Positions 10,799 through 23,586 of a DNA stretch of 64,000 nt are shown here, one piece after another (position 1 is the stretch's first letter; every line of letters begins with the position of its first letter). A program made the translations under genes and the position numbers. The stretch is taken from IMG/VR virus record IMGVR_UViG_3300016474_000281, positions 1 to 64,000 of that record. One strand, given 5' to 3'. Source of the DNA: a virus. The notes beneath the pieces are model-generated. The model was not told where the DNA came from. It worked only from the letters and a program-made list of their open reading frames with translations, and searched no databases.

Positions 10799-11755
10799 AT
10801 GCTAAATATAACACCTTACAAAGAAGCTGTAAGAGAAGCAGCTAAGGTAGGTCATTCTTATTTCAGAAATGTGATCAACGCTGCAGGTACAAGGGAACAC
10901 AGCTTGATAAAGAAACCTTCTACTGTAAAAGCCAGGTTCATTACTACTGAAGAATCTATTACACCTGACTATCTTATTGATGAGGGTGTACCTGTAATGC
11001 ACTTTATTGTAAATGATAAGTTGCAAGATAATGGATTTTACCCTTGTAGGACTATTGCTACTTTTAACATGATTGATGCTTGGTGCTTAGACATTGGTAA
11101 AGAGCAACTGCATGATGATGCTTCATGGGGTAGAGGACAAAGACCAGCAGTAAATACTTCAGCTTTGGAGTTCATGTATTTCTGTAACTGGGCTTCGTTG
11201 CAGTTTTTGAAGAATCAAATCTTTGAAACTAACCAACACTTGCTACCTCTGATTGATGGTGAAGCTATGGATAATGATGAAGCTAGAACTTACATCTTTG
11301 AAACAGCTAGCAACGATGAGATTGTAGCTATGGGTAGAAAAGTCAAAGAAGACTATACCTTTGTCATGCCTTACTTGATTATGAAAAAAGGTAATGAAGA
11401 CTGGGGTTGGTTAAACCCTGAGCGTGTAACAGTAGAGGAACTAGGTAAGAAAGCTTTATCTGTTGTTCTACCTACTGAAGACCAATGGAAGCTGATGTTG
11501 GGTGATGCACAAGAACAGGTGTTAGAAGAGATTGCATGGTTTGCAGATAACTCTAACTCTATGACTCATCCTGTAGCGTTGAAGAAACCTAACTGTTATG
11601 GGTTGTATGACCTCTTTGGTAATGTTTGGAAGATGGTACTTGAAAAACAGCTACCTCTTATGAATAAAACTGATTGGGACAAACATTTCTCTGGTAGAAA
11701 ATACTTGGATATTTTTGCATCCTGTGACAATTCAGCTTGGTTCAAACCTTTGTAA
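10799..11755 (+). CDS. FGE-sulfatase (SUMF1/EgtB-like) domain protein (318 aa)
   Basis: The C-terminal AWFADNSNSMTHPVALKKPNCYGLYDLFGNVWKMVLE matches the family signature (ThPVg.k.pN.wGLyDm.GNVwEw). Confidence 0.7.
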   Translation: MLNITPYKEAVREAAKVGHSYFRNVINAAGTREHSLIKKPSTVKARFITTEESITPDYLIDEGVPVMHFIVNDKLQDNGFYPCRTIATFNMIDAWCLDIGKEQLHDDASWGRGQRPAVNTSALEFMYFCNWASLQFLKNQIFETNQHLLPLIDGEAMDNDEARTYIFETASNDEIVAMGRKVKEDYTFVMPYLIMKKGNEDWGWLNPERVTVEELGKKALSVVLPTEDQWKLMLGDAQEQVLEEIAWFADNSNSMTHPVALKKPNCYGLYDLFGNVWKMVLEKQLPLMNKTDWDKHFSGRKYLDIFASCDNSAWFKPL

Positions 11756-11781
11756 TTGATTCATGTTTATAGATTGATTTG

Positions 11782-11813
11782 AGGAGGCTGGGTTAGTACC
11801 TGGTCTCCTTTTT
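11782..11813 (+). terminator. rho-independent terminator
   Basis: aggaggctggg pairs with cctggtctcct (3 G-T wobbles), loop ttagta, then TTTTT. Confidence 0.7.
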
Positions 11814-11824
11814 AATTCATAGCT

Positions 11825-11989
11825 ATGTTATTGAGTATTGAAAGTAAATACGGTATCAACAAAGAGTATTTTAACAACTTACTTGTTGTTGGAATGGGTT
11901 TGTACTCTGAAAAGTCAAGTTCAAAACGTGGCTTTTATTGGTTTGACTTGAAGCGTTTAGATTGTGGAACTACAACTGTTTTAATATGA
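11825..11989 (+). CDS. micro-ORF B1 (54 aa)
   Basis: pep MLLSIESKYGINKEYFNNLLVVGMGLYSEKSSSKRGFYWFDLKRLDCGTTTVLI; 3p junction ATGA. Confidence 0.5.
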   Translation: MLLSIESKYGINKEYFNNLLVVGMGLYSEKSSSKRGFYWFDLKRLDCGTTTVLI

Positions 11990-12252
11990 AACTTCTAAAG
12001 ATAAAGTTTAAAGGTGTTGGATGCAGAGATAATGTAGGTTCGTATTTAGAAAACAGACGTTTACCTTCTTATCTATACTGGTATAATAAAATTAGACAAC
12101 AGCTTTACAATGGTAATAATATGATACTAGAGACTACATATACTAAAGGTGAAACCAGTATTTTAAGTACCACCTATAGGAAACTTTGTGTACCAAACTG
12201 GCTGTTTGACCTTTCTGATTTACAGCTTAGTTTTATACCTATACTAATATGA
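11986..12252 (+). CDS. micro-ORF B2 (88 aa, looks like two fused units)
   Basis: pep MKLLKIKFKGVGCRDNVGSYLENRRLPSYLYWYNKIRQQLYNGNNMILETTYTKGETSILSTTYRKLCVPNWLFDLSDLQLSFIPILI; an internal aataatatgata junction is read in frame; 3p junction ATGA. Confidence 0.55.
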   Translation: MKLLKIKFKGVGCRDNVGSYLENRRLPSYLYWYNKIRQQLYNGNNMILETTYTKGETSILSTTYRKLCVPNWLFDLSDLQLSFIPILI

Positions 12253-12362
12253 TAGTTTCAATTAAATTCATAAAAGAATCAGATTTTACTGGATTAATGT
12301 TTCCTTTTGTAAAAGGTTGTGAAATTGATTCAGCTACTTTAATACTACACGTATGGAACTAG
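12249..12362 (+). CDS. micro-ORF B3 (37 aa)
   Basis: pep MIVSIKFIKESDFTGLMFPFVKGCEIDSATLILHVWN; 3p junction ATGGAACTAG. Confidence 0.5.
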   Translation: MIVSIKFIKESDFTGLMFPFVKGCEIDSATLILHVWN

Positions 12363-12484
12363 CAACTACAACATTAGTGTTTATGAGTTTATTTGGTGAA
12401 AGATATGTGTACAATCCACAATACTTTAGTGAGTTGTACATGAGAAAATTAGATCATGATTCTGTACATCTAACACTACACTGA
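12353..12484 (+). CDS. micro-ORF B4 (43 aa)
   Basis: pep MELATTTLVFMSLFGERYVYNPQYFSELYMRKLDHDSVHLTLH; 3p junction TGATG. Confidence 0.5.
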   Translation: MELATTTLVFMSLFGERYVYNPQYFSELYMRKLDHDSVHLTLH

Positions 12485-12588
12485 TGAAGATAAAAACCAC
12501 AGGAATACACTACAAGAAGTTTTACAAAGAATATTATTGGATCACAAACTCTAGTAAAGTGGGTAGTACATATTTAATTATACATTGA
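12484..12588 (+). CDS. micro-ORF B5 (34 aa)
   Basis: pep MKIKTTGIHYKKFYKEYYWITNSSKVGSTYLIIH; 3p junction TGATG. Confidence 0.5.
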   Translation: MKIKTTGIHYKKFYKEYYWITNSSKVGSTYLIIH

Positions 12589-12695
12589 TGGAAATCAAAA
12601 TAATATTTAAGCAATATCTTAGTGCTAAAGGGTTATTTTTCCCTAGTGTCAAGTATATATCTTCTAACGTAACTACATTATTTTACATAGTATGA
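12588..12695 (+). CDS. micro-ORF B6 (35 aa)
   Basis: pep MEIKIIFKQYLSAKGLFFPSVKYISSNVTTLFYIV; 3p junction ATGA. Confidence 0.5.
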   Translation: MEIKIIFKQYLSAKGLFFPSVKYISSNVTTLFYIV

Positions 12696-12802
12696 AAATC
12701 AAATGGTATCTTATGACTAGAATAGATATTAAAGTACATTCTACATACAGCAGTCTTACCCTAATGAATGATTCTTTAAGTACTGTAATGTTACTGATAT
12801 GA
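12692..12802 (+). CDS. micro-ORF B7 (36 aa), paralog of B12
   Basis: pep MKIKWYLMTRIDIKVHSTYSSLTLMNDSLSTVMLLI; 3p junction ATGA. Confidence 0.55.
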   Translation: MKIKWYLMTRIDIKVHSTYSSLTLMNDSLSTVMLLI

Positions 12803-12936
12803 AAGTAACTTTAAGACTAGTAGGAAGTTGTTATCTAAACAAAAAGTTTTACGTATGGTATTCAATAAAGCATTATGTTATGTGGAATACTATGAACAAA
12901 CAAATACACTGTTCAAATACATTTATGTTAATATGA
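12799..12936 (+). CDS. micro-ORF B8 (45 aa), paralog of B13
   Basis: pep MKVTLRLVGSCYLNKKFYVWYSIKHYVMWNTMNKQIHCSNTFMLI; 3p junction ATGA. Confidence 0.55.
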   Translation: MKVTLRLVGSCYLNKKFYVWYSIKHYVMWNTMNKQIHCSNTFMLI

Positions 12937-12962
12937 AAGTAGCTTTATTAGATGTGAGATGA
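12933..12962 (+). pseudogene. micro-ORF B9, 9-aa stump of a unit
   Basis: pep MKVALLDVR; normal ATGA junctions on both sides but the body is deleted. Confidence 0.4.
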
Positions 12963-13063
12963 AAATAAAAATTTCAGCAATACACGATAACAAGTTTTAT
13001 TATGAACATTCTTGGTTTATAGAAGGTTACAAAGGGTTTAGTGTACATTTAATTACAAACTGA
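12959..13063 (+). CDS. micro-ORF B10 (34 aa)
   Basis: pep MKIKISAIHDNKFYYEHSWFIEGYKGFSVHLITN; 3p junction TGATG. Confidence 0.5.
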   Translation: MKIKISAIHDNKFYYEHSWFIEGYKGFSVHLITN

Positions 13064-13179
13064 TGGAGTTAAAACTAACAGCAAAACACTATCATGTATC
13101 TGAAGATACGTGGAAGCTAGTAGATGTGTATTTTGGTTTAAAAAGTAAGTACATAGGCACTGAAATTTTACTAATATGA
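13063..13179 (+). CDS. micro-ORF B11 (38 aa)
   Basis: pep MELKLTAKHYHVSEDTWKLVDVYFGLKSKYIGTEILLI; 3p junction ATGA. Confidence 0.5.
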   Translation: MELKLTAKHYHVSEDTWKLVDVYFGLKSKYIGTEILLI

Positions 13180-13292
13180 AGATTACCTGGAAACTTATGA
13201 CCAGATTTGGTACTAAAGTACATTCTACATATAGCAATGTCAAGTTAATAGATGATAACATGAGTACTGCAATCTTATTGATATGGAAATAA
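13176..13292 (+). CDS. micro-ORF B12 (38 aa), paralog of B7
   Basis: pep MKITWKLMTRFGTKVHSTYSNVKLIDDNMSTAILLIWK; 3p junction ATGGAAATAA. Confidence 0.55.
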   Translation: MKITWKLMTRFGTKVHSTYSNVKLIDDNMSTAILLIWK

Positions 13293-13426
13293 CTTTAAAG
13301 ATAACTGGAGGTTGCTGTACAAACAAGAAGTACATTTTACTTCATTCAGCAAAATATTACGCTACTTGGCTTGGTAGAAAAGATAAACAGTTAGCTGATT
13401 GTTCATATATATTTACAATGATATGA
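13283..13426 (+). CDS. micro-ORF B13 (47 aa), paralog of B8
   Basis: pep MEITLKITGGCCTNKKYILLHSAKYYATWLGRKDKQLADCSYIFTMI; 3p junction ATGA. Confidence 0.55.
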   Translation: MEITLKITGGCCTNKKYILLHSAKYYATWLGRKDKQLADCSYIFTMI

Positions 13427-13584
13427 GACTACATAGAGAATACGGTTTTGAAGACATGGACATAGAGATACTTGTGTATGGAGGTTACTTTCATAACACT
13501 AAGCTTGGCATAGATCCGTATAAAATACTCAATGATTTTCGTAGACAGTATGAAACTCGTTCAACAATACTTACTTTAGTATGA
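13423..13584 (+). CDS. micro-ORF B14 (53 aa)
   Basis: pep MRLHREYGFEDMDIEILVYGGYFHNTKLGIDPYKILNDFRRQYETRSTILTLV; track ORF 13399-13584 trimmed to the ATG; 3p junction ATGA. Confidence 0.55.
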   Translation: MRLHREYGFEDMDIEILVYGGYFHNTKLGIDPYKILNDFRRQYETRSTILTLV

Positions 13585-13733
13585 GATTAGATAGATTATT
13601 AGGTGAAACTGATATCATCACTGCCAAAGGTAGTTATTTTAACATGCACTTCAGCAATGAAGCTAACTTAAGTTGGAGGTGTACACTTAGGCTTGCTTAT
13701 TTACTCAAATCTATAATGTTTACAATGATATGA
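13581..13733 (+). CDS. micro-ORF B15 (50 aa)
   Basis: pep MRLDRLLGETDIITAKGSYFNMHFSNEANLSWRCTLRLAYLLKSIMFTMI; 3p junction ATGA. Confidence 0.55.
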   Translation: MRLDRLLGETDIITAKGSYFNMHFSNEANLSWRCTLRLAYLLKSIMFTMI

Positions 13734-13882
13734 ATCTAAATGATTTTTTTGGTATATCTGGAGCTGGACATATTTCAAAAATGATTCAGATGAAAAGGTT
13801 TCCAACACTAATGATGCATCTTGAACTCAAGAACAGAATAGTAAAAGATTTAGGAGCTATAACTATACTAAAATGGAACTAA
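13730..13882 (+). CDS. micro-ORF B16 (50 aa)
   Basis: pep MNLNDFFGISGAGHISKMIQMKRFPTLMMHLELKNRIVKDLGAITILKWN; 3p junction ATGGAACTAA. Confidence 0.55.
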   Translation: MNLNDFFGISGAGHISKMIQMKRFPTLMMHLELKNRIVKDLGAITILKWN

Positions 13883-14016
13883 AAGTATTACGTAAGTCAG
13901 GAGCTGGATATTACTCAGAGCCTTTCAAAAAAGTTACTGAAATTGTATTTAAGAGTTATACTCCATACAGGTATAACGTAGCAAAAAATATAAGCATAAT
14001 AACTATACTGAGATGA
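13873..14016 (+). CDS. micro-ORF B17 (47 aa), tandem twin of B18
   Basis: pep MELKVLRKSGAGYYSEPFKKVTEIVFKSYTPYRYNVAKNISIITILR; 3p junction ATGA. Confidence 0.6.
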   Translation: MELKVLRKSGAGYYSEPFKKVTEIVFKSYTPYRYNVAKNISIITILR

Positions 14017-14162
14017 ACTTAAAAGTGTCACGTAAGTCAGGAGGTGGATACTTTACACAACCTTTTTTAGTAAGAAATGACATTGTGTTAATGAGTTATG
14101 TTTCATACAAGTTTAACGCAACAAAAGATACAAGCTTAATAACTATATTGATATGGAAGTAA
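14013..14162 (+). CDS. micro-ORF B18 (49 aa), tandem twin of B17
   Basis: pep MNLKVSRKSGGGYFTQPFLVRNDIVLMSYVSYKFNATKDTSLITILIWK; 3p junction ATGGAAGTAA. Confidence 0.6.
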   Translation: MNLKVSRKSGGGYFTQPFLVRNDIVLMSYVSYKFNATKDTSLITILIWK

Positions 14163-14278
14163 GAGTTAATAAAGTAGGTGGTGCTTACTACAGTTTAAAA
14201 GATAAACAAACTGATGTGTATTACTGCAGACATTTTCATTCAACACAAACTAATGGAACTAAATTAGTACTGCAATGA
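14153..14278 (+). CDS. micro-ORF B19 (41 aa)
   Basis: pep MEVRVNKVGGAYYSLKDKQTDVYYCRHFHSTQTNGTKLVLQ; 3p junction ATGA. Confidence 0.55.
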   Translation: MEVRVNKVGGAYYSLKDKQTDVYYCRHFHSTQTNGTKLVLQ

Positions 14279-14430
14279 AGGTAGTATCTAAGACATTTGT
14301 AAGTGGTCATTTTAACGAGCAGCTTAAAGATTTAGTTGGGAAGAATATTTTTATTCTCAGGTTCTTACCTTCAAAAGTAGATGGAGATATTATTAACTGT
14401 GTTACTAGTGTAAATTTTATTTCAATATGA
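14275..14430 (+). CDS. micro-ORF B20 (51 aa)
   Basis: pep MKVVSKTFVSGHFNEQLKDLVGKNIFILRFLPSKVDGDIINCVTSVNFISI; 3p junction ATGA. Confidence 0.55.
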   Translation: MKVVSKTFVSGHFNEQLKDLVGKNIFILRFLPSKVDGDIINCVTSVNFISI

Positions 14431-14537
14431 AATTAAAAAGACTTCCTATAACAAGTTACACTCACATAAGAATGGAACCCATATATTTTAGACAATTTAC
14501 TTCTAGCTTAGGAGGTGTTACAACAGTAGTGATATGA
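14427..14537 (+). CDS. micro-ORF B21 (36 aa)
   Basis: pep MKLKRLPITSYTHIRMEPIYFRQFTSSLGGVTTVVI; 3p junction ATGA. Confidence 0.5.
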   Translation: MKLKRLPITSYTHIRMEPIYFRQFTSSLGGVTTVVI

Positions 14538-14674
14538 GACTGTACGCATTAAATGTAGTTGGTTGTTATTGGAACAATAAAGGCGATAGTTTCACAATGT
14601 TAAAAAAAAAGCACTACCTTATTTATGTTTACGCAGGTAGCATAGTTGATTCAACAATATTAATATGCAATTAG
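14534..14674 (+). CDS. micro-ORF B22 (46 aa)
   Basis: pep MRLYALNVVGCYWNNKGDSFTMLKKKHYLIYVYAGSIVDSTILICN; 3p junction ATGCAATTAG. Confidence 0.55.
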   Translation: MRLYALNVVGCYWNNKGDSFTMLKKKHYLIYVYAGSIVDSTILICN

Positions 14675-14811
14675 ATCAGGTTGTATTACTTGGAGGAGAT
14701 GCTTGTGATAAATTTAGACATTTTGTTTCAAATTCAATATTGTCTGGATACTATCAAGACCCTGACTATAAACATAAACTTGACTCAATAATCTTAATGT
14801 TATGGAAATAA
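14665..14811 (+). CDS. micro-ORF B23 (48 aa)
   Basis: pep MQLDQVVLLGGDACDKFRHFVSNSILSGYYQDPDYKHKLDSIILMLWK; 3p junction ATGGAAATAA. Confidence 0.55.
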   Translation: MQLDQVVLLGGDACDKFRHFVSNSILSGYYQDPDYKHKLDSIILMLWK

Positions 14812-14957
14812 ATATAGTTAAAATGCTAGGTGGAGCTATATACAACGATAATACTCTTTTGTCAGATTCAAAGAGGAATACACATTCATCTTGGGATTTC
14901 ATATCTTTTGACACAGCTTATGATATACAGTCAACAATCTTGATGTTATGGAGTTAA
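14802..14957 (+). CDS. micro-ORF B24 (51 aa)
   Basis: pep MEINIVKMLGGAIYNDNTLLSDSKRNTHSSWDFISFDTAYDIQSTILMLWS; 3p junction ATGGAGTTAA. Confidence 0.55.
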   Translation: MEINIVKMLGGAIYNDNTLLSDSKRNTHSSWDFISFDTAYDIQSTILMLWS

Positions 14958-15091
14958 ATAGAATAGTGATTGTAGGTGGTAATATGTTTACCGAAAACAG
15001 TCTATATCAGTTTACTAAAGCTTTTCAATTCTATTCGTTACAAGTGAAACTTACTCCTCGTAGTTCAACAACATTCATACTATGGAAATAG
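14948..15091 (+). CDS. micro-ORF B25 (47 aa)
   Basis: pep MELNRIVIVGGNMFTENSLYQFTKAFQFYSLQVKLTPRSSTTFILWK; 3p junction ATGGAAATAG. Confidence 0.55.
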   Translation: MELNRIVIVGGNMFTENSLYQFTKAFQFYSLQVKLTPRSSTTFILWK

Positions 15092-15240
15092 ATAAAATCA
15101 TGATGACAGGTGGAGATATATATGAACGTTTTCCTTACATGTTTATTAAAATATATCCATTTTACTCAGTATTGTTTAATACAAACAAAACTGATTCAAC
15201 AACATTTATACTATGGGGCTGTTTAGAAAAATACAAATAA
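15082..15240 (+). CDS. micro-ORF B26 (52 aa)
   Basis: pep MEIDKIMMTGGDIYERFPYMFIKIYPFYSVLFNTNKTDSTTFILWGCLEKYK; 28-nt overlap with B27. Confidence 0.55.
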   Translation: MEIDKIMMTGGDIYERFPYMFIKIYPFYSVLFNTNKTDSTTFILWGCLEKYK

Positions 15241-15344
15241 GTGGTGGTTGTTTTAGAAATCATTTGTTTGGTTATGAACCTTTATGCGGGTGGGAATACA
15301 AAAGAATTGACCAAGATGAATCTATTATATTTTGTTTAACCTAA
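15213..15344 (+). CDS. micro-ORF B27 (43 aa), twin of B28
   Basis: pep MGLFRKIQISGGCFRNHLFGYEPLCGWEYKRIDQDESIIFCLT; 10-nt gap before B28. Confidence 0.55.
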   Translation: MGLFRKIQISGGCFRNHLFGYEPLCGWEYKRIDQDESIIFCLT

Positions 15345-15354
15345 TAAAACTATT

Positions 15355-15486
15355 ATGAATCTTTTTAAAAGAATAATCTATGGAGGTGGGCGTGGTAGTC
15401 ATTCAAAAAGTATAAACCTGGTTTTACATTTGTATAACTTCAATAAGGTTAAACCAGATGAATCAATTATAACTGTTTGTTTATGA
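15355..15486 (+). CDS. micro-ORF B28 (43 aa), twin of B27
   Basis: pep MNLFKRIIYGGGRGSHSKSINLVLHLYNFNKVKPDESIITVCL; 3p junction ATGA. Confidence 0.55.
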   Translation: MNLFKRIIYGGGRGSHSKSINLVLHLYNFNKVKPDESIITVCL

Positions 15487-15611
15487 AGATAGCAATGATG
15501 AAGAGAGGTTTATCTTTCTTTAATACAAGAACAAATCCAGCTTTTCATCCCTGGACTTACTCAGCTAAAATGACAAATGTACTTATTGGAACAAAACTTA
15601 TCTTGATATGA
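15483..15611 (+). CDS. micro-ORF B29 (42 aa)
   Basis: pep MKIAMMKRGLSFFNTRTNPAFHPWTYSAKMTNVLIGTKLILI; 3p junction ATGA. Confidence 0.5.
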   Translation: MKIAMMKRGLSFFNTRTNPAFHPWTYSAKMTNVLIGTKLILI

Positions 15612-15757
15612 AACTAAAAAGTAGAATAATTGGAGAAGGTTACGGCATGTCTAAAAGAGAAATAAGAGATAACAAAGGAAACTCTTATTACCACGCGATG
15701 AAGTTTAAAGATGGTTCTAAAGCAGCTTCAGTAAACATTATACTAACATGGAACTAG
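15608..15757 (+). CDS. micro-ORF B30 (49 aa)
   Basis: pep MKLKSRIIGEGYGMSKREIRDNKGNSYYHAMKFKDGSKAASVNIILTWN; 3p junction ATGGAACTAG. Confidence 0.55.
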   Translation: MKLKSRIIGEGYGMSKREIRDNKGNSYYHAMKFKDGSKAASVNIILTWN

Positions 15758-15888
15758 ATACAATAAGTAAAGGTTACAGTTTTAAATCACCTTTAGCAAA
15801 CATCACCTACATGACCTTAGTTAAAGATACTAAGGTCAAGTTTAGTACGTTGGCAACAAGTAGTATGTTGCTAATATTGACACGATGA
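15748..15888 (+). CDS. micro-ORF B31 (46 aa)
   Basis: pep MELDTISKGYSFKSPLANITYMTLVKDTKVKFSTLATSSMLLILTR; 3p junction ATGA. Confidence 0.55.
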   Translation: MELDTISKGYSFKSPLANITYMTLVKDTKVKFSTLATSSMLLILTR

Positions 15889-16019
15889 GAATTGGAAACA
15901 ACTTATTTGGAGGTAGTTATTATATGCCTAAGAATATAAAGATAGTTGCAGATTATCACGGTGTATTAAGACATACAGCTTCATCCCTTAGAAGTACAAC
16001 ACTTATCTTATGGAACTAA
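15885..16019 (+). CDS. micro-ORF B32 (44 aa)
   Basis: pep MRIGNNLFGGSYYMPKNIKIVADYHGVLRHTASSLRSTTLILWN; 3p junction ATGGAACTAA. Confidence 0.55.
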   Translation: MRIGNNLFGGSYYMPKNIKIVADYHGVLRHTASSLRSTTLILWN

Positions 16020-16156
16020 AAACAGATACGTTTGGTAGTTGCTATTTTACAGATGGACAGTGGCACAAAGACTTTATGTTAGACGCTAACTTTATCTCTA
16101 TTAGTGAAAGTGTTCAGACTCAAAGTAAAAGCGCAATACTAGTACTATGGAATTAA
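16010..16156 (+). CDS. micro-ORF B33 (48 aa)
   Basis: pep MELKTDTFGSCYFTDGQWHKDFMLDANFISISESVQTQSKSAILVLWN; 3p junction ATGGAATTAA. Confidence 0.6.
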   Translation: MELKTDTFGSCYFTDGQWHKDFMLDANFISISESVQTQSKSAILVLWN

Positions 16157-16305
16157 AGTTTGACATATCAGGAGGTAGTCACGCTACTACAGACTTAGTT
16201 AGTGTTCAAAAGAAATCTGTGTTTGACACAGACTTTAAAATTTTTAAAGCTAGGGAACTTCATGGACACAATCACATAAGTACAAATTTGATAGTATGGA
16301 ACTGA
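16147..16305 (+). CDS. micro-ORF B34 (52 aa)
   Basis: pep MELKFDISGGSHATTDLVSVQKKSVFDTDFKIFKARELHGHNHISTNLIVWN; 3p junction ATGGAACTGA. Confidence 0.6.
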   Translation: MELKFDISGGSHATTDLVSVQKKSVFDTDFKIFKARELHGHNHISTNLIVWN

Positions 16306-16445
16306 GAACTAACACACTAGGTAATTGCTACTGTACAAATAAGAATCACTATAAAGTGCCAATGGATAACACGACAAATTACGCTCCTATCAGAACATTC
16401 TTGATACTTAAAAATAGAGGTATAACACTAATACTATGGAACTAA
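16296..16445 (+). CDS. micro-ORF B35 (49 aa)
   Basis: pep MELRTNTLGNCYCTNKNHYKVPMDNTTNYAPIRTFLILKNRGITLILWN; 3p junction ATGGAACTAA. Confidence 0.6.
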   Translation: MELRTNTLGNCYCTNKNHYKVPMDNTTNYAPIRTFLILKNRGITLILWN

Positions 16446-16585
16446 CTGTTGATATATTTGGTAGTAGCTATGATATAGACTCACTTGAACATACAGTGTT
16501 TATAACAGAATTTAGTGTACTTATGCCTATATCAAGATGTTATGAAGTTAAAAATACAGGTGCAATCTTACTGTTATGGAACTAA
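16436..16585 (+). CDS. micro-ORF B36 (49 aa)
   Basis: pep MELTVDIFGSSYDIDSLEHTVFITEFSVLMPISRCYEVKNTGAILLLWN; 3p junction ATGGAACTAA. Confidence 0.6.
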   Translation: MELTVDIFGSSYDIDSLEHTVFITEFSVLMPISRCYEVKNTGAILLLWN

Positions 16586-16722
16586 AGTCTGATATATCAG
16601 GTGCTTCTTATGGAGGATCCTACTTTGTAGATAGGACAAGAATACAACTTAAACGATATGAATTTATATCTGCTGGAATTTGGAAAGGAAAAACTATATC
16701 AACACTATTTGTATGCAGTTAA
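16576..16722 (+). CDS. micro-ORF B37 (48 aa)
   Basis: pep MELKSDISGASYGGSYFVDRTRIQLKRYEFISAGIWKGKTISTLFVCS; 3p junction ATGCAGTTAA. Confidence 0.6.
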   Translation: MELKSDISGASYGGSYFVDRTRIQLKRYEFISAGIWKGKTISTLFVCS

Positions 16723-16856
16723 GAGTTAACTTCTTAGGAATATGCTACTCCAAATGTGAAGTAAGAGATAGAGATATTAAGTCACAACGTTGGGAGTTTG
16801 TAGAAATTAAATCTTGGAATCAAAAAAACATGTCAACGTTAATGTTATGTATTTAG
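16713..16856 (+). CDS. micro-ORF B38 (47 aa)
   Basis: pep MQLRVNFLGICYSKCEVRDRDIKSQRWEFVEIKSWNQKNMSTLMLCI; 3p junction ATGTATTTAG. Confidence 0.55.
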   Translation: MQLRVNFLGICYSKCEVRDRDIKSQRWEFVEIKSWNQKNMSTLMLCI

Positions 16857-16987
16857 ATTTTAAAATGATTGGAGCTGGGTATGAAACACATAACCAATGG
16901 TACAGGATTCAATCTGCTTTAATGGCATTTGGAATACACCGTGGATTTAACGATTTAGACGTAGGATTAAAAACAATACTAATATGA
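16847..16987 (+). CDS. micro-ORF B39 (46 aa)
   Basis: pep MYLDFKMIGAGYETHNQWYRIQSALMAFGIHRGFNDLDVGLKTILI; 3p junction ATGA. Confidence 0.55.
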   Translation: MYLDFKMIGAGYETHNQWYRIQSALMAFGIHRGFNDLDVGLKTILI

Positions 16988-17124
16988 AAATAGCATCAGA
17001 TTTAGCTGGAGGTTCTATATATAACACTAAAAGTATACTTAAAAGTGTATTTGTGCAACCAGCATTATACAGACAAAGAGAAAAAACCGATTCAACTAGA
17101 AGTAGTATAACTATACTAATATGA
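16984..17124 (+). CDS. micro-ORF B40 (46 aa)
   Basis: pep MKIASDLAGGSIYNTKSILKSVFVQPALYRQREKTDSTRSSITILI; 3p junction ATGA. Confidence 0.6.
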   Translation: MKIASDLAGGSIYNTKSILKSVFVQPALYRQREKTDSTRSSITILI

Positions 17125-17267
17125 AACTAAAAATAAATTATAGAGGCATTTCAATATTTCAAAAAGATACATATCTTGAATCTGCTAAGTCACAAAAAGG
17201 ACTGGCACAACAATATGTAAGCTTTTTTGTAAATAAAGTATTAAGTACAACAACATTACTAATATGA
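17121..17267 (+). CDS. micro-ORF B41 (48 aa)
   Basis: pep MKLKINYRGISIFQKDTYLESAKSQKGLAQQYVSFFVNKVLSTTTLLI; 3p junction ATGA. Confidence 0.55.
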   Translation: MKLKINYRGISIFQKDTYLESAKSQKGLAQQYVSFFVNKVLSTTTLLI

Positions 17268-17413
17268 AGTTACAATCAGATATTGTTGGTGGATCGTATG
17301 TACAGAATGAAGATTGTTTTAAACTTCATCTTATAGGTGTAGAGTATTCTGATACGTATACTTTTCTCAGCTATGTAGATAACAATGTAGGTTTAATATC
17401 ATTACTAGTATGA
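17264..17413 (+). CDS. micro-ORF B42 (49 aa)
   Basis: pep MKLQSDIVGGSYVQNEDCFKLHLIGVEYSDTYTFLSYVDNNVGLISLLV; 3p junction ATGA. Confidence 0.6.
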   Translation: MKLQSDIVGGSYVQNEDCFKLHLIGVEYSDTYTFLSYVDNNVGLISLLV

Positions 17414-17553
17414 AATTAAGATTAAATGGAACATTAACTTCTCCTTATATGGGAGCAAGCTGTTATACTGGAATCAATCATAAGAGACATAGTTCTTTAA
17501 AGCTGTGGGCACGTCTACCCAGGACTTGTGGAGCTTCAATTGTGTTGATATGA
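17410..17553 (+). CDS. micro-ORF B43 (47 aa)
   Basis: pep MKLRLNGTLTSPYMGASCYTGINHKRHSSLKLWARLPRTCGASIVLI; 3p junction ATGA. Confidence 0.55.
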   Translation: MKLRLNGTLTSPYMGASCYTGINHKRHSSLKLWARLPRTCGASIVLI

Positions 17554-17681
17554 AGTTGATAGAAAACTTAAACATATATCACTGTTCTTTAGACAAAGAA
17601 AGACAACTATGCCAATTCAAGTATAAACACCATTATGCTGTCATAAATGAATACATAAGTTGTTTAAACATACTGATATGA
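17550..17681 (+). CDS. micro-ORF B44 (43 aa)
   Basis: pep MKLIENLNIYHCSLDKERQLCQFKYKHHYAVINEYISCLNILI; 3p junction ATGA. Confidence 0.55.
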   Translation: MKLIENLNIYHCSLDKERQLCQFKYKHHYAVINEYISCLNILI

Positions 17682-17806
17682 AACTGAGTTATGAATGTTT
17701 TAAGAGAAGAGGCATATACTTTAAAGGATACTTGACATCACCTAAACATACTATTTTCATTCAAGTCAAGTATTGGGACGTAGGTATGTTAAACATATTG
17801 TCATAA
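17678..17806 (+). CDS. micro-ORF B45 (42 aa)
   Basis: pep MKLSYECFKRRGIYFKGYLTSPKHTIFIQVKYWDVGMLNILS; the 3p junction is ATAA because the next unit has lost its ATG. Confidence 0.5.
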   Translation: MKLSYECFKRRGIYFKGYLTSPKHTIFIQVKYWDVGMLNILS

Positions 17807-17928
17807 GATTGCATTACTTTATATTGTTTAGAGGATCAAGTTACAGTTCTATAAAAAAAGGTGTATTTGTAAATACGTCTCTTCGTAACAGAAACAAAAC
17901 TAAATCAATAATTACAGCACTTCTATGA
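17803..17928 (+). pseudogene. micro-ORF B46: intact 41-codon unit whose start codon is ATA (TTG two codons later)
   Basis: pep (I)RLHYFILFRGSSYSSIKKGVFVNTSLRNRNKTKSIITALL; tcATAAgat sits where other units have tcATGAaa; 3p junction ATGA. Confidence 0.4.
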
Positions 17929-18068
17929 ACATAATGTGTAAAATAAGAATGACTGGAGGAGACTATTCAACAGGACACTTTGATAGATTTATATATCAGA
18001 ATAAGTGTTACGAACATTACTTGGATCGTAGGTTTATTGAAACAGCTTTACAGCTTATTGTTATATGA
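17925..18068 (+). CDS. micro-ORF B47 (47 aa)
   Basis: pep MNIMCKIRMTGGDYSTGHFDRFIYQNKCYEHYLDRRFIETALQLIVI; 3p junction ATGA. Confidence 0.55.
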   Translation: MNIMCKIRMTGGDYSTGHFDRFIYQNKCYEHYLDRRFIETALQLIVI

Positions 18069-18112
18069 AACTTAATTCGTTATACACTATGAGACTTAAT
18101 CCGTTGTACACT
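18065..18112 (+). repeat. 2 x 24-bp tandem repeat (21/24 identical)
   Basis: atgaaacttaattcgttatacact (18065-18088) and atgagacttaatccgttgtacact (18089-18112). Confidence 0.9.
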
Positions 18113-18208
18113 ACAATTGTTTGTATAGGTATGCATAGGACATTAGCTTATTACCAGCCAATTACAAGATTAAGTTATGAAGATTCAATTATACTTGTAA
18201 CAATATGA
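18065..18208 (+). CDS. micro-ORF B48 (47 aa) with an internal 24-bp tandem duplication of its own start region
   Basis: pep MKLNSLYTMRLNPLYTTIVCIGMHRTLAYYQPITRLSYEDSIILVTI; 3p junction ATGA. Confidence 0.55.
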   Translation: MKLNSLYTMRLNPLYTTIVCIGMHRTLAYYQPITRLSYEDSIILVTI

Positions 18209-18351
18209 ATCTATCCTGGAACGATAACAACTGGCCTTTTACTATAATGGTTAGAGGAGGTAACTTTAAGCGATGTGCACACATGTACACTACTGGTATA
18301 TATGTAACTTACTCTTCAAAACATTACTCAGCTATACTAGTGACAACATGA
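18205..18351 (+). CDS. micro-ORF B49 (48 aa)
   Basis: pep MNLSWNDNNWPFTIMVRGGNFKRCAHMYTTGIYVTYSSKHYSAILVTT; 3p junction ATGA. Confidence 0.55.
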   Translation: MNLSWNDNNWPFTIMVRGGNFKRCAHMYTTGIYVTYSSKHYSAILVTT

Positions 18352-18485
18352 TACTAAATACATTTGTACAATTGAGAGGTACTTGTAACTGCCTGAGAAG
18401 AAAGACAAAAGATGGAGCTATTAGGAGAGGTGTATGGTTTAGCGCGCAAGTAAAATCTCACGGTTTACTACTGGTTTTAATTTAA
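18348..18485 (+). CDS. micro-ORF B50 (45 aa)
   Basis: pep MILNTFVQLRGTCNCLRRKTKDGAIRRGVWFSAQVKSHGLLLVLI; track ORF 18273-18485 trimmed to the ATG; 11-nt gap follows. Confidence 0.55.
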   Translation: MILNTFVQLRGTCNCLRRKTKDGAIRRGVWFSAQVKSHGLLLVLI

Positions 18486-18496
18486 ACAAACATAAG

Positions 18497-18643
18497 ATGA
18501 AATTAACTCAAGACAGTTTGTTGTTGCTATCTAAAGGTGGCCACTACTTAGGTAAGGAAAGTATTTTGGATCATGAAATATGTTATCTTTCATTCTTTCG
18601 TACAAAATACATTCACAAATCAATAACAACTATTTTAATATGA
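18497..18643 (+). CDS. micro-ORF B51 (48 aa)
   Basis: pep MKLTQDSLLLLSKGGHYLGKESILDHEICYLSFFRTKYIHKSITTILI; 3p junction ATGA. Confidence 0.6.
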   Translation: MKLTQDSLLLLSKGGHYLGKESILDHEICYLSFFRTKYIHKSITTILI

Positions 18644-18783
18644 AACTAGTGGAAAGTAGGAAGATAGGAATTTGTTTTAGATCCCGTCCTTTTGTAGCAG
18701 ATAGTGTGTCTGTATTTACAGGGTTTAACAACTTTACATTTCTTTTAGAAAATACATTAGGAACTTATTTAATACTGATATGA
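18640..18783 (+). CDS. micro-ORF B52 (47 aa)
   Basis: pep MKLVESRKIGICFRSRPFVADSVSVFTGFNNFTFLLENTLGTYLILI; track ORF 18580-18783 trimmed to the ATG; 3p junction ATGA. Confidence 0.55.
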   Translation: MKLVESRKIGICFRSRPFVADSVSVFTGFNNFTFLLENTLGTYLILI

Positions 18784-18908
18784 ATTTACACAGGTATCGT
18801 ATAGCTGGAATATCGTATAGACAGAAGTATAACATAGGGTTTATACCTTTTTTTGATAGCCTTAACAAAAGAGATGTTGATGAATCAATAACATTTATAC
18901 TGATATGA
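18780..18908 (+). CDS. micro-ORF B53 (42 aa)
   Basis: pep MNLHRYRIAGISYRQKYNIGFIPFFDSLNKRDVDESITFILI; 3p junction ATGA. Confidence 0.55.
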   Translation: MNLHRYRIAGISYRQKYNIGFIPFFDSLNKRDVDESITFILI

Positions 18909-19048
18909 ATTTAACTATAAAACTGAAACATTATCCGTTTTATCTTAAACAAGATAAGATGTATCAAGCTGATGTGGCTTCTGAAAAGTTAATTTTTAAA
19001 GTGACAGCACAGCATCATTCATACAGTGTGAAAGTGATTCTTGCTTAA
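18905..19048 (+). CDS. micro-ORF B54 (47 aa)
   Basis: pep MNLTIKLKHYPFYLKQDKMYQADVASEKLIFKVTAQHHSYSVKVILA; 16-nt gap follows. Confidence 0.5.
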   Translation: MNLTIKLKHYPFYLKQDKMYQADVASEKLIFKVTAQHHSYSVKVILA

Positions 19049-19064
19049 CACAAACAATACAGTT

Positions 19065-19202
19065 ATGCCGTTGTTGTTTCAAAGAATAGGGTTATCCTAC
19101 ATGAGTTTAAACCACTATGAAATAATTACTAATATGAAGTTGCGAGCTGTTGTTTGTAAAGCAGGTAACTTTAGCTCAAAAATGATATTGACATGGAACT
19201 AG
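19065..19202 (+). CDS. micro-ORF B55 (45 aa, two short units fused in frame)
   Basis: pep MPLLFQRIGLSYMSLNHYEIITNMKLRAVVCKAGNFSSKMILTWN; an internal attactaatatgaag junction is read through; 3p junction ATGGAACTAG. Confidence 0.45.
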   Translation: MPLLFQRIGLSYMSLNHYEIITNMKLRAVVCKAGNFSSKMILTWN

Positions 19203-19336
19203 CTATAGACTTTATAGGAGCTACACATTCTCAAAGTGAATTTCATGTAAAGATTTACATGAACCCCGTACAGTTTTACAGTTTTTTTATATTTGAAAAA
19301 GATGAACTTAGGTCTGCAATATTTAATTTGATGTAA
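19193..19336 (+). CDS. micro-ORF B56 (47 aa), last unit of array B
   Basis: pep MELAIDFIGATHSQSEFHVKIYMNPVQFYSFFIFEKDELRSAIFNLM. Confidence 0.5.
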   Translation: MELAIDFIGATHSQSEFHVKIYMNPVQFYSFFIFEKDELRSAIFNLM

Positions 19337-19343
19337 AAGTTTA

Positions 19344-19374
19344 TTTGCAACATTGACTTAAATAGTTATCTTTG
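19344..19374 (+). promoter_or_regulatory. Bacteroidota-type promoter (TTTG-N19-TAtcTTTG) 4 nt upstream of an ATG
   Basis: TTTG at 19344-19347 and TATCTTTG at 19367-19374 with a 19-nt spacer; ATG at 19379 implies a leaderless or near-leaderless mRNA. Confidence 0.5.
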
Positions 19375-19833: not shown

Positions 19834-19907
19834 AACAGAGTAGCTTAAATGGTAGAGCACAAGACTCATAATCTTGATGGATGCAGGTTCAAATCCTGTC
19901 TTTGTTA
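19834..19907 (+). tRNA. tRNA with anticodon CAT (elongator Met or lysidine-dependent Ile2); no encoded CCA
   Basis: Hand-folded cloverleaf: acceptor aacagag/ctttgtt, D-arm gctt-aaatggta-gagc, anticodon arm caaga-ctCATaa-tcttg, T-arm gcagg-ttcaaat-cctgt. The anticodon stem lacks the three G-C pairs of initiator tRNA. Ends are +/- 2 nt. Confidence 0.75.
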
Positions 19908-19919
19908 CTAATTTAAACT

Positions 19920-20309
19920 ATGAACAACAACATTCACAAATTAGCACAACATTACCTTAATACAGCTATATCACTGTCTAACCTATCTAAGGTAGAAACT
20001 TTGCAAGTAGGTGCAGTGATAGTAGATACACAGGGTAACATAGTTGGAGTTGGATACAATTCAGCTCCTTTCTACTTAGAAGACCCACAAGATTTATATG
20101 AGACTACAGTTCATGCTGAAGAGATGGCTTTATTATCTAGAAGTGATCAACCTCACTTGTTAGTATGTACTCATGCACCTTGTTTATCTTGTGCAAGTAA
20201 GATGTTCTTAGCTGGAGTGAAAGAAGTGTGGTACAAGAACCCTTACAAAAACGATAAAGGACTACAATACTTAGAAAGATTAGGTATAAAAACGAAACAA
20301 TATGAATGA
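19920..20309 (+). CDS. dCMP/cytidine deaminase, zinc-binding (129 aa)
   Basis: VHAEEMAL (HAE zinc/catalytic motif) and PCLSCA (PCxxC). Confidence 0.85.
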   Translation: MNNNIHKLAQHYLNTAISLSNLSKVETLQVGAVIVDTQGNIVGVGYNSAPFYLEDPQDLYETTVHAEEMALLSRSDQPHLLVCTHAPCLSCASKMFLAGVKEVWYKNPYKNDKGLQYLERLGIKTKQYE

Positions 20310-21030
20310 TAGTAATGAGGTAGTGAACAAGAACAAGGTAGAGTTATTAGACTTTGCAGGATCAGACTTACATATAGCTGTAACTGCCTGGGCTTCTACT
20401 CATCTTGACTTAGGCTTAGTAAGTTCAGACAACATCAAGGAAAGGATACCTATGATGATTGATGCTATACTGAGTACAGTTTCAAGGAAAAGAACACCTG
20501 AAGAACTAATCAGGTTTTTAGGTTTGAACCAACACAGTTCTCCATTTAGGTCTAGTTGGTTTATGTTTGGTTTCCGTGAAGATGTAGCTACCCACATTCA
20601 TTTGTTAAAACATGTAGTGCTTATCTCGAATACTAATTCAGAATCAGCTAGGTACAAAGAAGTTAAAGACAAGATGTATCTACCTGAAGACTGGTTAGAC
20701 ACTGAAGTAGGTGAGTATTGGTATGACTTGTTGGAACTATACACTCAGATGGGGTTTGACTACTACCATAGATGTGTCAAAGAACTGATAGCTGCAGGGC
20801 ATGATAAAGCTAGAGTTAAAGAGACAGCCAGGTATTTCTTAACGATGAACTCACAAAGAGATGTTGTTAGAACACTTACTTTAGATGGGTTGATACAGTT
20901 GTATTACAAGAGAGGTCCTAAGAGCAAGTCACAAAAAGAAGTACAAAAGATAGTAGAAGACATGTTAAACGAGGTTAAAAATATTCCTGGAGAACCTTTT
21001 AAATATAGTCTTGAAGCATTTAATCTATGA
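20302..21030 (+). CDS. thyX: flavin-dependent thymidylate synthase ThyX-like, divergent (242 aa)
   Basis: NSESARY resembles the ThyX S-x-x-S-x-R-Y signature; the C-terminal RYFLTMNSQRDVVRTLTLDGLIQLYYKR....SQKEVQ parallels the ThyX helix; adjacent to dCMP deaminase. Confidence 0.6.
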   Translation: MNDSNEVVNKNKVELLDFAGSDLHIAVTAWASTHLDLGLVSSDNIKERIPMMIDAILSTVSRKRTPEELIRFLGLNQHSSPFRSSWFMFGFREDVATHIHLLKHVVLISNTNSESARYKEVKDKMYLPEDWLDTEVGEYWYDLLELYTQMGFDYYHRCVKELIAAGHDKARVKETARYFLTMNSQRDVVRTLTLDGLIQLYYKRGPKSKSQKEVQKIVEDMLNEVKNIPGEPFKYSLEAFNL

Positions 21031-21602: not shown

Positions 21603-21749
21603 ATGAAATTCACATTTAAAATGGCTGGTATAGCTGCGGTAACTGAAGTTTATTTTGTAAAAAATTATCACAACAAAGTACTTTTTACAACGGCTATACC
21701 TTGTAAAGTAAGAACTAGAAGTTGTGGTAATAAATTATTACTAGCGTGA
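21603..21749 (+). CDS. micro-ORF C1 (48 aa), twin of C2
   Basis: pep MKFTFKMAGIAAVTEVYFVKNYHNKVLFTTAIPCKVRTRSCGNKLLLA; the 3p junction is GTGA because the next start is GTG. Confidence 0.5.
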   Translation: MKFTFKMAGIAAVTEVYFVKNYHNKVLFTTAIPCKVRTRSCGNKLLLA

Positions 21750-21901
21750 AAATAACGTTAAAGATTAAATTAACTGGGGCAGGTGCTTTAACTGCAGTTT
21801 ATTACATAAAGAGTTATCAAAGTATAATAGTTTTTGAATCTGCTCTAAGCAATAATGTAAAATGTTCTTATTGGAGTAGTAAATTCTTACTAATATGCTA
21901 A
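21746..21901 (+). CDS. micro-ORF C2 (51 aa, GTG start)
   Basis: pep VKITLKIKLTGAGALTAVYYIKSYQSIIVFESALSNNVKCSYWSSKFLLIC; 7-nt overlap with C3. Confidence 0.4.
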   Translation: MKITLKIKLTGAGALTAVYYIKSYQSIIVFESALSNNVKCSYWSSKFLLIC

Positions 21902-22011
21902 TGATTTTCAATGCTGCTGCTTTAACTAATCATACTAAACTAGCTAATTACTTTCGTTTAAAAGCTAAACATGGAGGTAAGCTGGGTAGTTGTAAATTTA
22001 TACTAATATGA
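21895..22011 (+). CDS. micro-ORF C3 (38 aa)
   Basis: pep MLMIFNAAALTNHTKLANYFRLKAKHGGKLGSCKFILI; 3p junction ATGA. Confidence 0.5.
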   Translation: MLMIFNAAALTNHTKLANYFRLKAKHGGKLGSCKFILI

Positions 22012-22157
22012 ACATACCTATAAAAATGTCAGGTGCATCTTACATTAGTAATAAGATCACAACAAATTTAGAAAGGTCAAAACAAAGAGTATTAACAAAA
22101 AGCACCTTTCTACATGTTCACACAAGTAATGTTGGCAGTTTATTTTTATTGACATGA
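22008..22157 (+). CDS. micro-ORF C4 (49 aa), twin of C5
   Basis: pep MNIPIKMSGASYISNKITTNLERSKQRVLTKSTFLHVHTSNVGSLFLLT; 3p junction ATGA. Confidence 0.55.
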   Translation: MNIPIKMSGASYISNKITTNLERSKQRVLTKSTFLHVHTSNVGSLFLLT

Positions 22158-22300
22158 ACATACTCGTACACGTATTAGGTGCATCTCATATCAGCTACAG
22201 GTCTACCTTAGATACAGAAAGGTTAGGGTCAGGTAGACAAGGGTTTTGCGGTTTACATACTCGTGCAAATAATTGTAGTTTAATACTTATTTTGACATGA
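22154..22300 (+). CDS. micro-ORF C5 (48 aa), twin of C4
   Basis: pep MNILVHVLGASHISYRSTLDTERLGSGRQGFCGLHTRANNCSLILILT; 3p junction ATGA. Confidence 0.55.
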   Translation: MNILVHVLGASHISYRSTLDTERLGSGRQGFCGLHTRANNCSLILILT

Positions 22301-22461
22301 AACTAAAACTAAATGTCACAAGTATATCTTGTTGCAGTTGCATAGGTGCAGCTAAAAACTATAAACGTGTAACATGTTTTTTATCTAGCAAGGTTTCTTC
22401 ACCTGTATTAGTACAAAATGGTTTAATTCACGGTAGTATATTTGTATTAGCATGGAACTAA
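22297..22461 (+). CDS. micro-ORF C6 (54 aa)
   Basis: pep MKLKLNVTSISCCSCIGAAKNYKRVTCFLSSKVSSPVLVQNGLIHGSIFVLAWN; 3p junction ATGGAACTAA. Confidence 0.55.
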   Translation: MKLKLNVTSISCCSCIGAAKNYKRVTCFLSSKVSSPVLVQNGLIHGSIFVLAWN

Positions 22462-22622
22462 TGAGAATAGGGTATAGTGGTAATGTTGTTTTCCCCTGGG
22501 GAGGTAGTTGTCTATCAACTTTAAAGATAGGTTTTTCACAATACCCTATATCTAAAAGTAGCGGATATGCTATGCACGTGTTTAAAACACCACTGATAAG
22601 TACTTACTTAGTATTGATATGA
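22452..22622 (+). CDS. micro-ORF C7 (56 aa)
   Basis: pep MELMRIGYSGNVVFPWGGSCLSTLKIGFSQYPISKSSGYAMHVFKTPLISTYLVLI; 3p junction ATGA. Confidence 0.55.
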   Translation: MELMRIGYSGNVVFPWGGSCLSTLKIGFSQYPISKSSGYAMHVFKTPLISTYLVLI

Positions 22623-22753
22623 ACATATATACAATTGGTTTATATAAAGGTATGGTCTTTAAGAATACGCACAAAGACACTTTAAAGTGCTACCTACCTA
22701 GAGACATACTGTTTAAAACAACAGATTTAACATCATATTTTTTAATCACTTAA
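22619..22753 (+). CDS. micro-ORF C8 (44 aa), last unit of array C
   Basis: pep MNIYTIGLYKGMVFKNTHKDTLKCYLPRDILFKTTDLTSYFLIT. Confidence 0.5.
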   Translation: MNIYTIGLYKGMVFKNTHKDTLKCYLPRDILFKTTDLTSYFLIT

Positions 22754-22765
22754 ACAATCATTCAC

Positions 22766-23080
22766 ATGCAAACTGAGGTATTAGATTTGTTGAAACAGAA
22801 GTTACAGGAAATAGACCCTGGTAAATCTGTACATGTACGTTGTAACAACAAGTTAGTGTATGAATCTTTTTTAAAAGGTTTGTTATCTAATTCAAAAGAT
22901 TGGTTGAAAGAACGTAATGTTAGAGCTACACAAGCTGAAGACAAGAAGTACTACATTGAGATTGAGTTCTTGAGCAACCAAGAAGCTGTGACCATAGCCA
23001 AAGGGTTTATGGTTAAGTTGAAAGAATACATTGACATGAAGTTGTTAGAAATCGTTTACAGAGATTTAAATCCACAATGA
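22766..23080 (+). CDS. hypothetical protein (104 aa)
   Basis: ATG ORF; ATGA overlap with the next gene. Confidence 0.6.
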   Translation: MQTEVLDLLKQKLQEIDPGKSVHVRCNNKLVYESFLKGLLSNSKDWLKERNVRATQAEDKKYYIEIEFLSNQEAVTIAKGFMVKLKEYIDMKLLEIVYRDLNPQ

Positions 23081-23586
23081 TGTATAGCTTATTGATGTTG
23101 TTCTGTATAGACACTATACCAACGGATTTAGGTACGTACTTACCTGAAGTAAATATCTACGCTGATCATCAACAAAGAGTAGAAACATTAGCTAGGTTGG
23201 TGTATTCTGAATCAGGTAATCAAAGTTTGATAGCTAAAAAAGCTGTAGCCAACGTAGTATTAAATCGCATGGAGTACTTTGATTTGTCTTTAGAACAAGT
23301 TATCTTTAAGCGCAATCAGTTTAACGGTGTAGGTACTAAGTGGTTTAGAGCTAAGTTTGACAAAGATAGCTACGAAGCTGCCCTATCTGTTTTATCTGGT
23401 GAAAGAATAATACAACCAGACATACTTTACTTTGCTAACGAGAAAAGAGCCACTAACAAGACTTGGATCAAGTTTATAAGTAAGTATAAAGCTTTTCAGT
23501 TAGAAGACCACGTATTTTACTATGACATACTTGCAAGGACTTTATACAGCAAAACAGGTAGCTTTAGACGTAGAGTGCTTCCCTAA
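23077..23586 (+). CDS. SleB/CwlJ-family cell-wall hydrolase (169 aa), candidate endolysin
   Basis: LARLVYSESGNQSLIAKKAVANVVLNRME...VIFKRNQFNGV matches the Hydrolase_2 core (E-x-x-G-E...AV..VvlNR...V..q..QF). Confidence 0.75.
   Translation: MMYSLLMLFCIDTIPTDLGTYLPEVNIYADHQQRVETLARLVYSESGNQSLIAKKAVANVVLNRMEYFDLSLEQVIFKRNQFNGVGTKWFRAKFDKDSYEAALSVLSGERIIQPDILYFANEKRATNKTWIKFISKYKAFQLEDHVFYYDILARTLYSKTGSFRRRVLP

Follow-up and report, generated by a model that had tools for sequence, protein, structure and literature searches.

What occupies a region of a phage genome that looks empty in a track of open reading frames (ORFs) of at least 60 amino acids (aa), and what might its contents do for the phage? 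This question is raised by positions 11825-19336 of the virus record IMGVR_UViG_3300016474_000281, whose first 64,000 nucleotides (nt; hereafter the window) were analyzed and whose full length is 102,932 bp. A chain scan found this region, termed array B, to be tiled by 55 consecutive unit ORFs on the plus strand, 53 of which have an ATG start. The head-to-tail array described in a first-pass annotation of the window is real, and most units have the length of 34-54 aa given there, but the reported 56 units became 55 in the scan and the length extremes are 21 and 88 aa (two units, U26 and U54, are short with 21-22 aa). The true gaps measure 22, 33, 15, 11, and 85 nt, as against three of 10, 11, and 16 nt noted earlier. 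The array, the units that are referred to individually below, and a second array of the same family are located as follows:

11825..19336, plus strand: array B, about 55 micro-ORFs of one paralogous family
11825..11989, plus strand: U01, first unit, 54 aa
11986..12252, plus strand: U02, 88 aa, a chimeric unit
13423..13584, plus strand: U13, the most conserved unit
16576..16722, plus strand: U36 (MELKSDISGASY…), a typical unit and the anchor of the unit profile
17809..17928, plus strand: U45, a unit-like ORF without ATG, possibly a degenerate unit
19193..19336, plus strand: U55, last unit of array B
21603..22753, plus strand: array C, about 8 units of the array B family, located after the thymidylate synthase gene

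Neighboring units overlap at 44 of the 54 junctions, 24 times by 4 nt (ATGA), 17 times by 10 nt (ATGGAACTAA), and three times by 1 nt. At the 10-nt junction, the W-N-stop codons of the preceding unit lie over the M-E-L codons of the next one. Owing to these stop/start overlaps, the reading frame steps back by one from each unit to the next. The sequence upstream of the unit starts has an AT fraction of 0.74 and carries a Shine-Dalgarno (SD) motif in 0 of 54 cases, and around the junction T occupies the second position of codons. Since the start region is AT-rich and SD-less, the hydrophobic tail of the units and their hydrophobic residue 3 are in part the protein imprint of a standard initiation module, which in this form is typical of Bacteroidota translation.

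The unit alignments bear out the common architecture proposed in the first-pass annotation: an N-terminal head with the consensus MxL.....G..Y (MxL…GG.Y) is followed by a hypervariable middle and a hydrophobic C-terminus of the form S/T…Φ-Φ-Φ. The unit proteins are basic, with a median isoelectric point of 9.4, and no transmembrane segment or known motif was found in them. Paralogs are highly divergent (median of about 26% aa identity), and adjacent units are only slightly more similar to each other than distant ones, a pattern consistent with ancient tandem duplication and later shuffling.

That so many open frames in succession do not arise by chance had been argued from the AT-richness of the DNA, and this was confirmed. 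With a stop frequency of 0.086 per codon in shuffled sequence (0.10-0.125 in the units' own off-frames), the chance of 45 open codons in a random frame of the same composition is p≈0.017 for a single unit, so that 55 successive open units cannot be ascribed to chance; the frame-specific selection, stop avoidance, and in-frame indels described below point the same way. Stop-codon recoding was considered as a separate explanation and rejected, because no long ORF spans the array in translation tables 4 and 6, with TGA read as W or TAG/TAA as Q, and table 11 leaves the large genes intact; the genome contains no suppressor tRNA.

The comparison that addresses coding most directly is that of orthologous arrays, which were used because dN/dS (the ratio of non-synonymous to synonymous substitution rates) is saturated among the paralogs alone, with a proportion of synonymous differences (pS) of about 0.5. 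Close relatives were reached via the FGE-like gene upstream and the thymidylate synthase gene Thy1 downstream of the array. Two of them, a 47-kb Logan contig whose Thy1 is 93% identical (L005) and a 101.8-kb ENA contig (L015), have a colinear array at the equivalent place. L005 is the closer relative, with about 81% nt identity to array B. A 65.8-kb contig that carries P0128 is another relative with this array. The frame test against L005 covered 41 well-aligned orthologous unit pairs with 1783 codons, and stop-involving codons were excluded from pN/pS (the ratio of non-synonymous to synonymous differences). In the ORF frame, pN/pS was 0.51 (95% confidence interval 0.44-0.59) and new stops occurred in 0 of the 1783 codons, whereas the two shifted frames gave pN/pS values of 0.84 and 0.84 (0.75-0.95 and 0.75-0.96) and contained 49 and 51 new stops; the bootstrap of the ORF-frame value never reached these controls. 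Substitution rates at codon positions 1, 2, and 3 were 0.188, 0.166, and 0.242, position 3 being the fastest, and indels within units were net multiples of three. The most conserved unit, U13, has 94% nt identity to its L005 counterpart and a pN/pS of 0.07. In the replication with L015, the ORF frame acquired four new stops, each of which falls in a misaligned, non-orthologous stretch, versus 41-42 in each control frame; the contrast in pN/pS was weaker (0.60 versus 0.66 and 0.81) because many units are non-orthologous in that alignment.

These data also bear on the alternative of a non-coding repeat at the DNA or RNA level, in which the ORFs would be accidental and the array might serve, for example, as a recombination hotspot, as a structured RNA, or as a series of protein-binding sites. 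The region is indeed tandemly repetitive and AT-rich and has conserved junction motifs, but frame-specific selection with complete stop avoidance and a pN/pS of 0.51 versus 0.84, the fastest rate at codon position 3, the in-frame indels within units, and the low probability of even one random open frame of 45 codons are at odds with it. A purely non-coding repeat is largely refuted by the frame test, and we regard this explanation as hardly credible. The comparison of orthologous arrays shows that the units are protein-coding genes under purifying selection that is looser than that on core enzymes, as measured in frame for the flanking Thy1 (pN/pS 0.12) and deoxycytidylate (dCMP) deaminase (0.05).

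The strongest rival accepts translation of the units, but takes the peptides to be inert: translation itself would be selected, since it protects a long mRNA from Rho-dependent termination and decay (polarity). Strong stop avoidance, the tight coupling of stops and starts, and a constraint looser than that on core enzymes would all be expected in this case. The explanation is weakened by constraint at the aa level, because non-synonymous changes are suppressed even with stop-involving codons excluded, and the common N-terminal motifs point to constraint on the aa sequence beyond the maintenance of open frames; we consider it improbable. Within units, pN/pS rose from 0.38 over the N-terminal 12 codons to 0.50 in the middle and 0.73 over the C-terminal 10 codons, where the low pS (0.18) points to nucleotide constraint at the overlap with the next start.

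The relatives also differ in the number of units, with about 64 in L005, about 46 in L015, and 55 in array B according to the chain scan. Whole-unit indels are 119-155 nt long. With one exception in each of the two pairwise alignments, their lengths are ≡2 mod 3, in agreement with the unit period. L005 lacks about four of the window units, U45 among them, and L015 lacks 14; conversely, about seven units of L005 are without a counterpart in the window. Array C is present in L005 and L015 in a shortened form of three units, whereas relatives with about 50% identity in Thy1 have no array. U02 is the product of a deletion that fused two genes in frame, its N-terminal part corresponding to positions 790-936 and its C-terminal part to positions 1472-1603 of L005, where the two are separate. 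According to these alignments, the array changes in size by gain and loss of whole units; with its own coupled ATG and its own frame, each unit can be added or removed without disrupting its neighbors. Diversification by duplication, as suggested in the first-pass annotation, is supported by the membership of all units in one profile family, by the unit gains and losses ≡2 mod 3, by the U02 fusion, and by the 46, 55, and 64 units of the three arrays.

Turnover of this kind could also result from selfish expansion, in which the copies would have a modest function, for example as one dosage-dependent factor, instead of forming a diversified kit. The variation between 46 and 64 units among relatives and the weak similarity of nearest neighbors are compatible with this possibility, but the strong divergence of the paralogs and their hypervariable middles argue against a single dosage function, and selfish expansion appears quite unlikely.

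A profile hidden Markov model (HMM) of the units matched within the genome only arrays B and C, which identifies the units as one family. Of the three arrays, A, B, and C, to which 71 units had been ascribed, array C was recovered, but no third array was found by the unit HMM; the earlier total could not be reproduced, the window containing about 63 units. A separate run of small plus-strand ORFs at 1122-2396 (70, 79, 66, 23, 87, and 63 aa) has no match to the HMM. When 1.84 billion protein representatives were searched with it, five matches were obtained, all from the same phage lineage. The units had no match in Pfam and PHROG, a search of the ESM Atlas with units found nothing, and queries with flanking genes and unit peptides against viral contigs and a search of metagenome contigs gave nothing outside the lineage. 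The impression of the first-pass annotation that no recognized protein family is involved thus holds, and the unit family is lineage-specific, without homologs outside this phage lineage. Among the database entries, a 495-aa histidine-ammonia-lyase-like protein (P0131) is listed in the 90%-identity cluster of the 53-aa unit P0126, probably as a clustering artefact. Short Logan contigs from an aquatic metagenome (run X1), probably derived from DNA, are 85-95% identical to parts of array B, and relatives of this phage may occur outside the gut. Database gene calls on the L005 contig list only about 33 of the approximately 64 units detected by the chain scan. Standard gene calling thus misses about half of the units, which explains why the ORF track looked empty, and protein databases probably lack many units of this phage family.

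The setting of the array is that of a complete genome, as indicated by direct terminal repeats at the ends of the 102,932-bp record. By its gene content the source is a crAss-like phage (Crassvirales): it encodes the crAss_MUZ family PF25731, in addition to Thy1, a DnaB-like helicase, a DEAD-box helicase, and PD-(D/E)XK nucleases. Its closest phage relatives are crAss-like phages of Bacteroides and Flavobacterium; homologs of its DnaB occur in FpV4-like Flavobacterium phages and among the crAss-like phages of Bacteroides intestinalis, Kehishuvirus included. Both GC skew and gene orientation switch at about 35 kb, separating a plus-strand half with replication and nucleotide-metabolism genes from a minus-strand half coding for very large proteins. 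Arrays B and C together make up about 8% of the phage genome. Array B is flanked by genes for an FGE-like enzyme, a 79-aa protein without assignment, dCMP deaminase, and Thy1; the surrounding features are:

10799..11755, plus strand: gene of an FGE-sulfatase-domain protein, the upstream flank, with orthologs next to units in L003, L004, L005, and L015 (in L004 the ortholog of U01 directly follows it)
11781..11810, plus strand: terminator-like intrinsic hairpin with a 13-bp stem and a subsequent U-tract, just upstream of unit 1
19834..19908, plus strand: tRNA-Met(CAT), just after array B
19920..20309, plus strand: dCMP deaminase, conserved downstream flank and control gene
20302..21030, plus strand: flavin-dependent thymidylate synthase Thy1, conserved downstream flank and control gene

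Another tRNA of the phage, Arg(TCT), is located at genome positions 97984-98058. The replication half also contains, at 23077-23586 (plus strand), a cell-wall hydrolase gene (Hydrolase_2, PF07486), which adjoins the gene of a 612-aa protein with a weak PolB-exonuclease-like match.

This arrangement has to be considered if the products are taken to be virion-associated or injected internal proteins instead of early factors directed at the host. Phage internal proteins are often small and basic, as the units are, but the array lies in the replication and nucleotide-metabolism half, and the block of structural and large proteins is on the opposite strand and side; a role in the virion is very unlikely.

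Taken together, array B is best explained as a polycistronic, translationally coupled block of paralogous micro-proteins that serves as a host-directed kit, a reading that we regard as probable, though by no means certain. The terminator reported upstream of the array was recovered as the hairpin at 11781-11810, and inside the array no terminator-like site was detected except one weak hairpin at 13620, which makes one long plus-strand transcript most likely. Each unit would be translated from its own AT-rich, SD-less start region, and since each start is tied to the stop before it through ATGA or the 10-nt overlap, ribosomes could pass from unit to unit. The result would be a series of distinct basic proteins of 40-55 aa with a common head, a short hydrophobic tail, and a variable middle. 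Selection maintains the units as proteins, and their number and identity would be tuned by gain and loss of whole units. Such a kit of small host-directed proteins would be deployed early in infection, most plausibly for counter-defence or host takeover.

Several observations weigh against this reading. Early expression would fit the position of the array in the replication half beside nucleotide-metabolism genes without being proven by it, and the timing is deduced from genomic position only. No promoter for array B was identified, and the promoter-like element placed at 19344-19374 in the first-pass annotation is not among the hits of the scan. The units have no similarity to any anti-defence family, and Pfam searches of the flanking genes gave no helix-turn-helix (HTH) domain, so that no anti-CRISPR-associated (aca) HTH regulator adjoins the array. 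With a pN/pS of about 0.5, the units are far less constrained than the flanking enzymes (0.05-0.12); per-unit constraint is moderate, and some units may be near-neutral passengers. Two AlphaFold runs with different multiple sequence alignments (U36 and U13) gave models of low confidence (predicted local distance difference test, pLDDT, ~57), which are mostly coil with only a weak C-terminal helix and no β-strands; the label beta-rich that had been attached to the units is not borne out by them.

A further-reaching version of the host-directed kit would be a combinatorial arsenal, in which about 55 distinct micro-protein inhibitors are delivered from one transcript, every one of them adapted to another host target or variant of its defences, and the phage population reshapes the repertoire by unit recombination. 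The modular architecture with coupled ATG starts would then be an adaptation that makes reshuffling harmless. At present this version must be called doubtful.

Clusters of small, fast-evolving, lineage-restricted proteins in the early regions of phages are known from anti-CRISPR and other anti-defence loci. Like the products of acr loci, the units (21-88 aa) are small (<150 aa), clustered phage proteins, but they differ in being basic and not acidic, in belonging to a single paralogous family instead of being unrelated genes, and in having no aca HTH neighbor. Multicopy, partly tandem arrays of many small genes (about 40-70 aa) of one family are represented by the hli genes of cyanophages, whose products have a conserved chlorophyll-binding transmembrane helix and a photoprotective role. 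In contrast, the units described here lack a transmembrane segment or known motif, and array B is far larger. Hypervariable segments are shared with the variable phage proteins of diversity-generating retroelements (DGRs), which are used for host interaction. The diversity of the units, however, would stem from ancient duplication and divergence together with unit turnover, and not from template-directed mutation; a DGR origin was rejected, as no reverse transcriptase (RVT_1, PF00078) is encoded in the 102.9-kb genome.

The closest parallel is found within crAss-like phages themselves, whose blocks of short ORFan genes have been suspected to encode anti-defence proteins; in addition, phages of the Zeta group have been noted to contain short-ORF regions that change rapidly and are dissimilar even among close relatives (Yutin et al., 2021, Nat Commun, PMC7886860). 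The phage order is the same, and the units likewise match only members of their lineage. Those blocks are mixed and have no reported common family, whereas array B is a single tandem, coupled family of about 55-64 units with a common architecture and measurable purifying selection. Array B fits into this class of short-ORFan blocks and is distinctive in its size, its single-family modularity, and its measurable turnover.

The locus is a clear comparative case of a phage that devotes about 8% of its genome to dozens of paralogous micro-protein genes. It also has a bearing on virome annotation, since coding blocks of AT-rich crAss-like phages can go unnoticed with an ORF cutoff of at least 60 aa and even with standard gene callers. 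Should the products be directed at the host, for instance in counter-defence, the array would be an experimentally tractable model for how a large kit of small effectors is kept and reshuffled, and a source of new small inhibitors of the defences or physiology of Bacteroidota.

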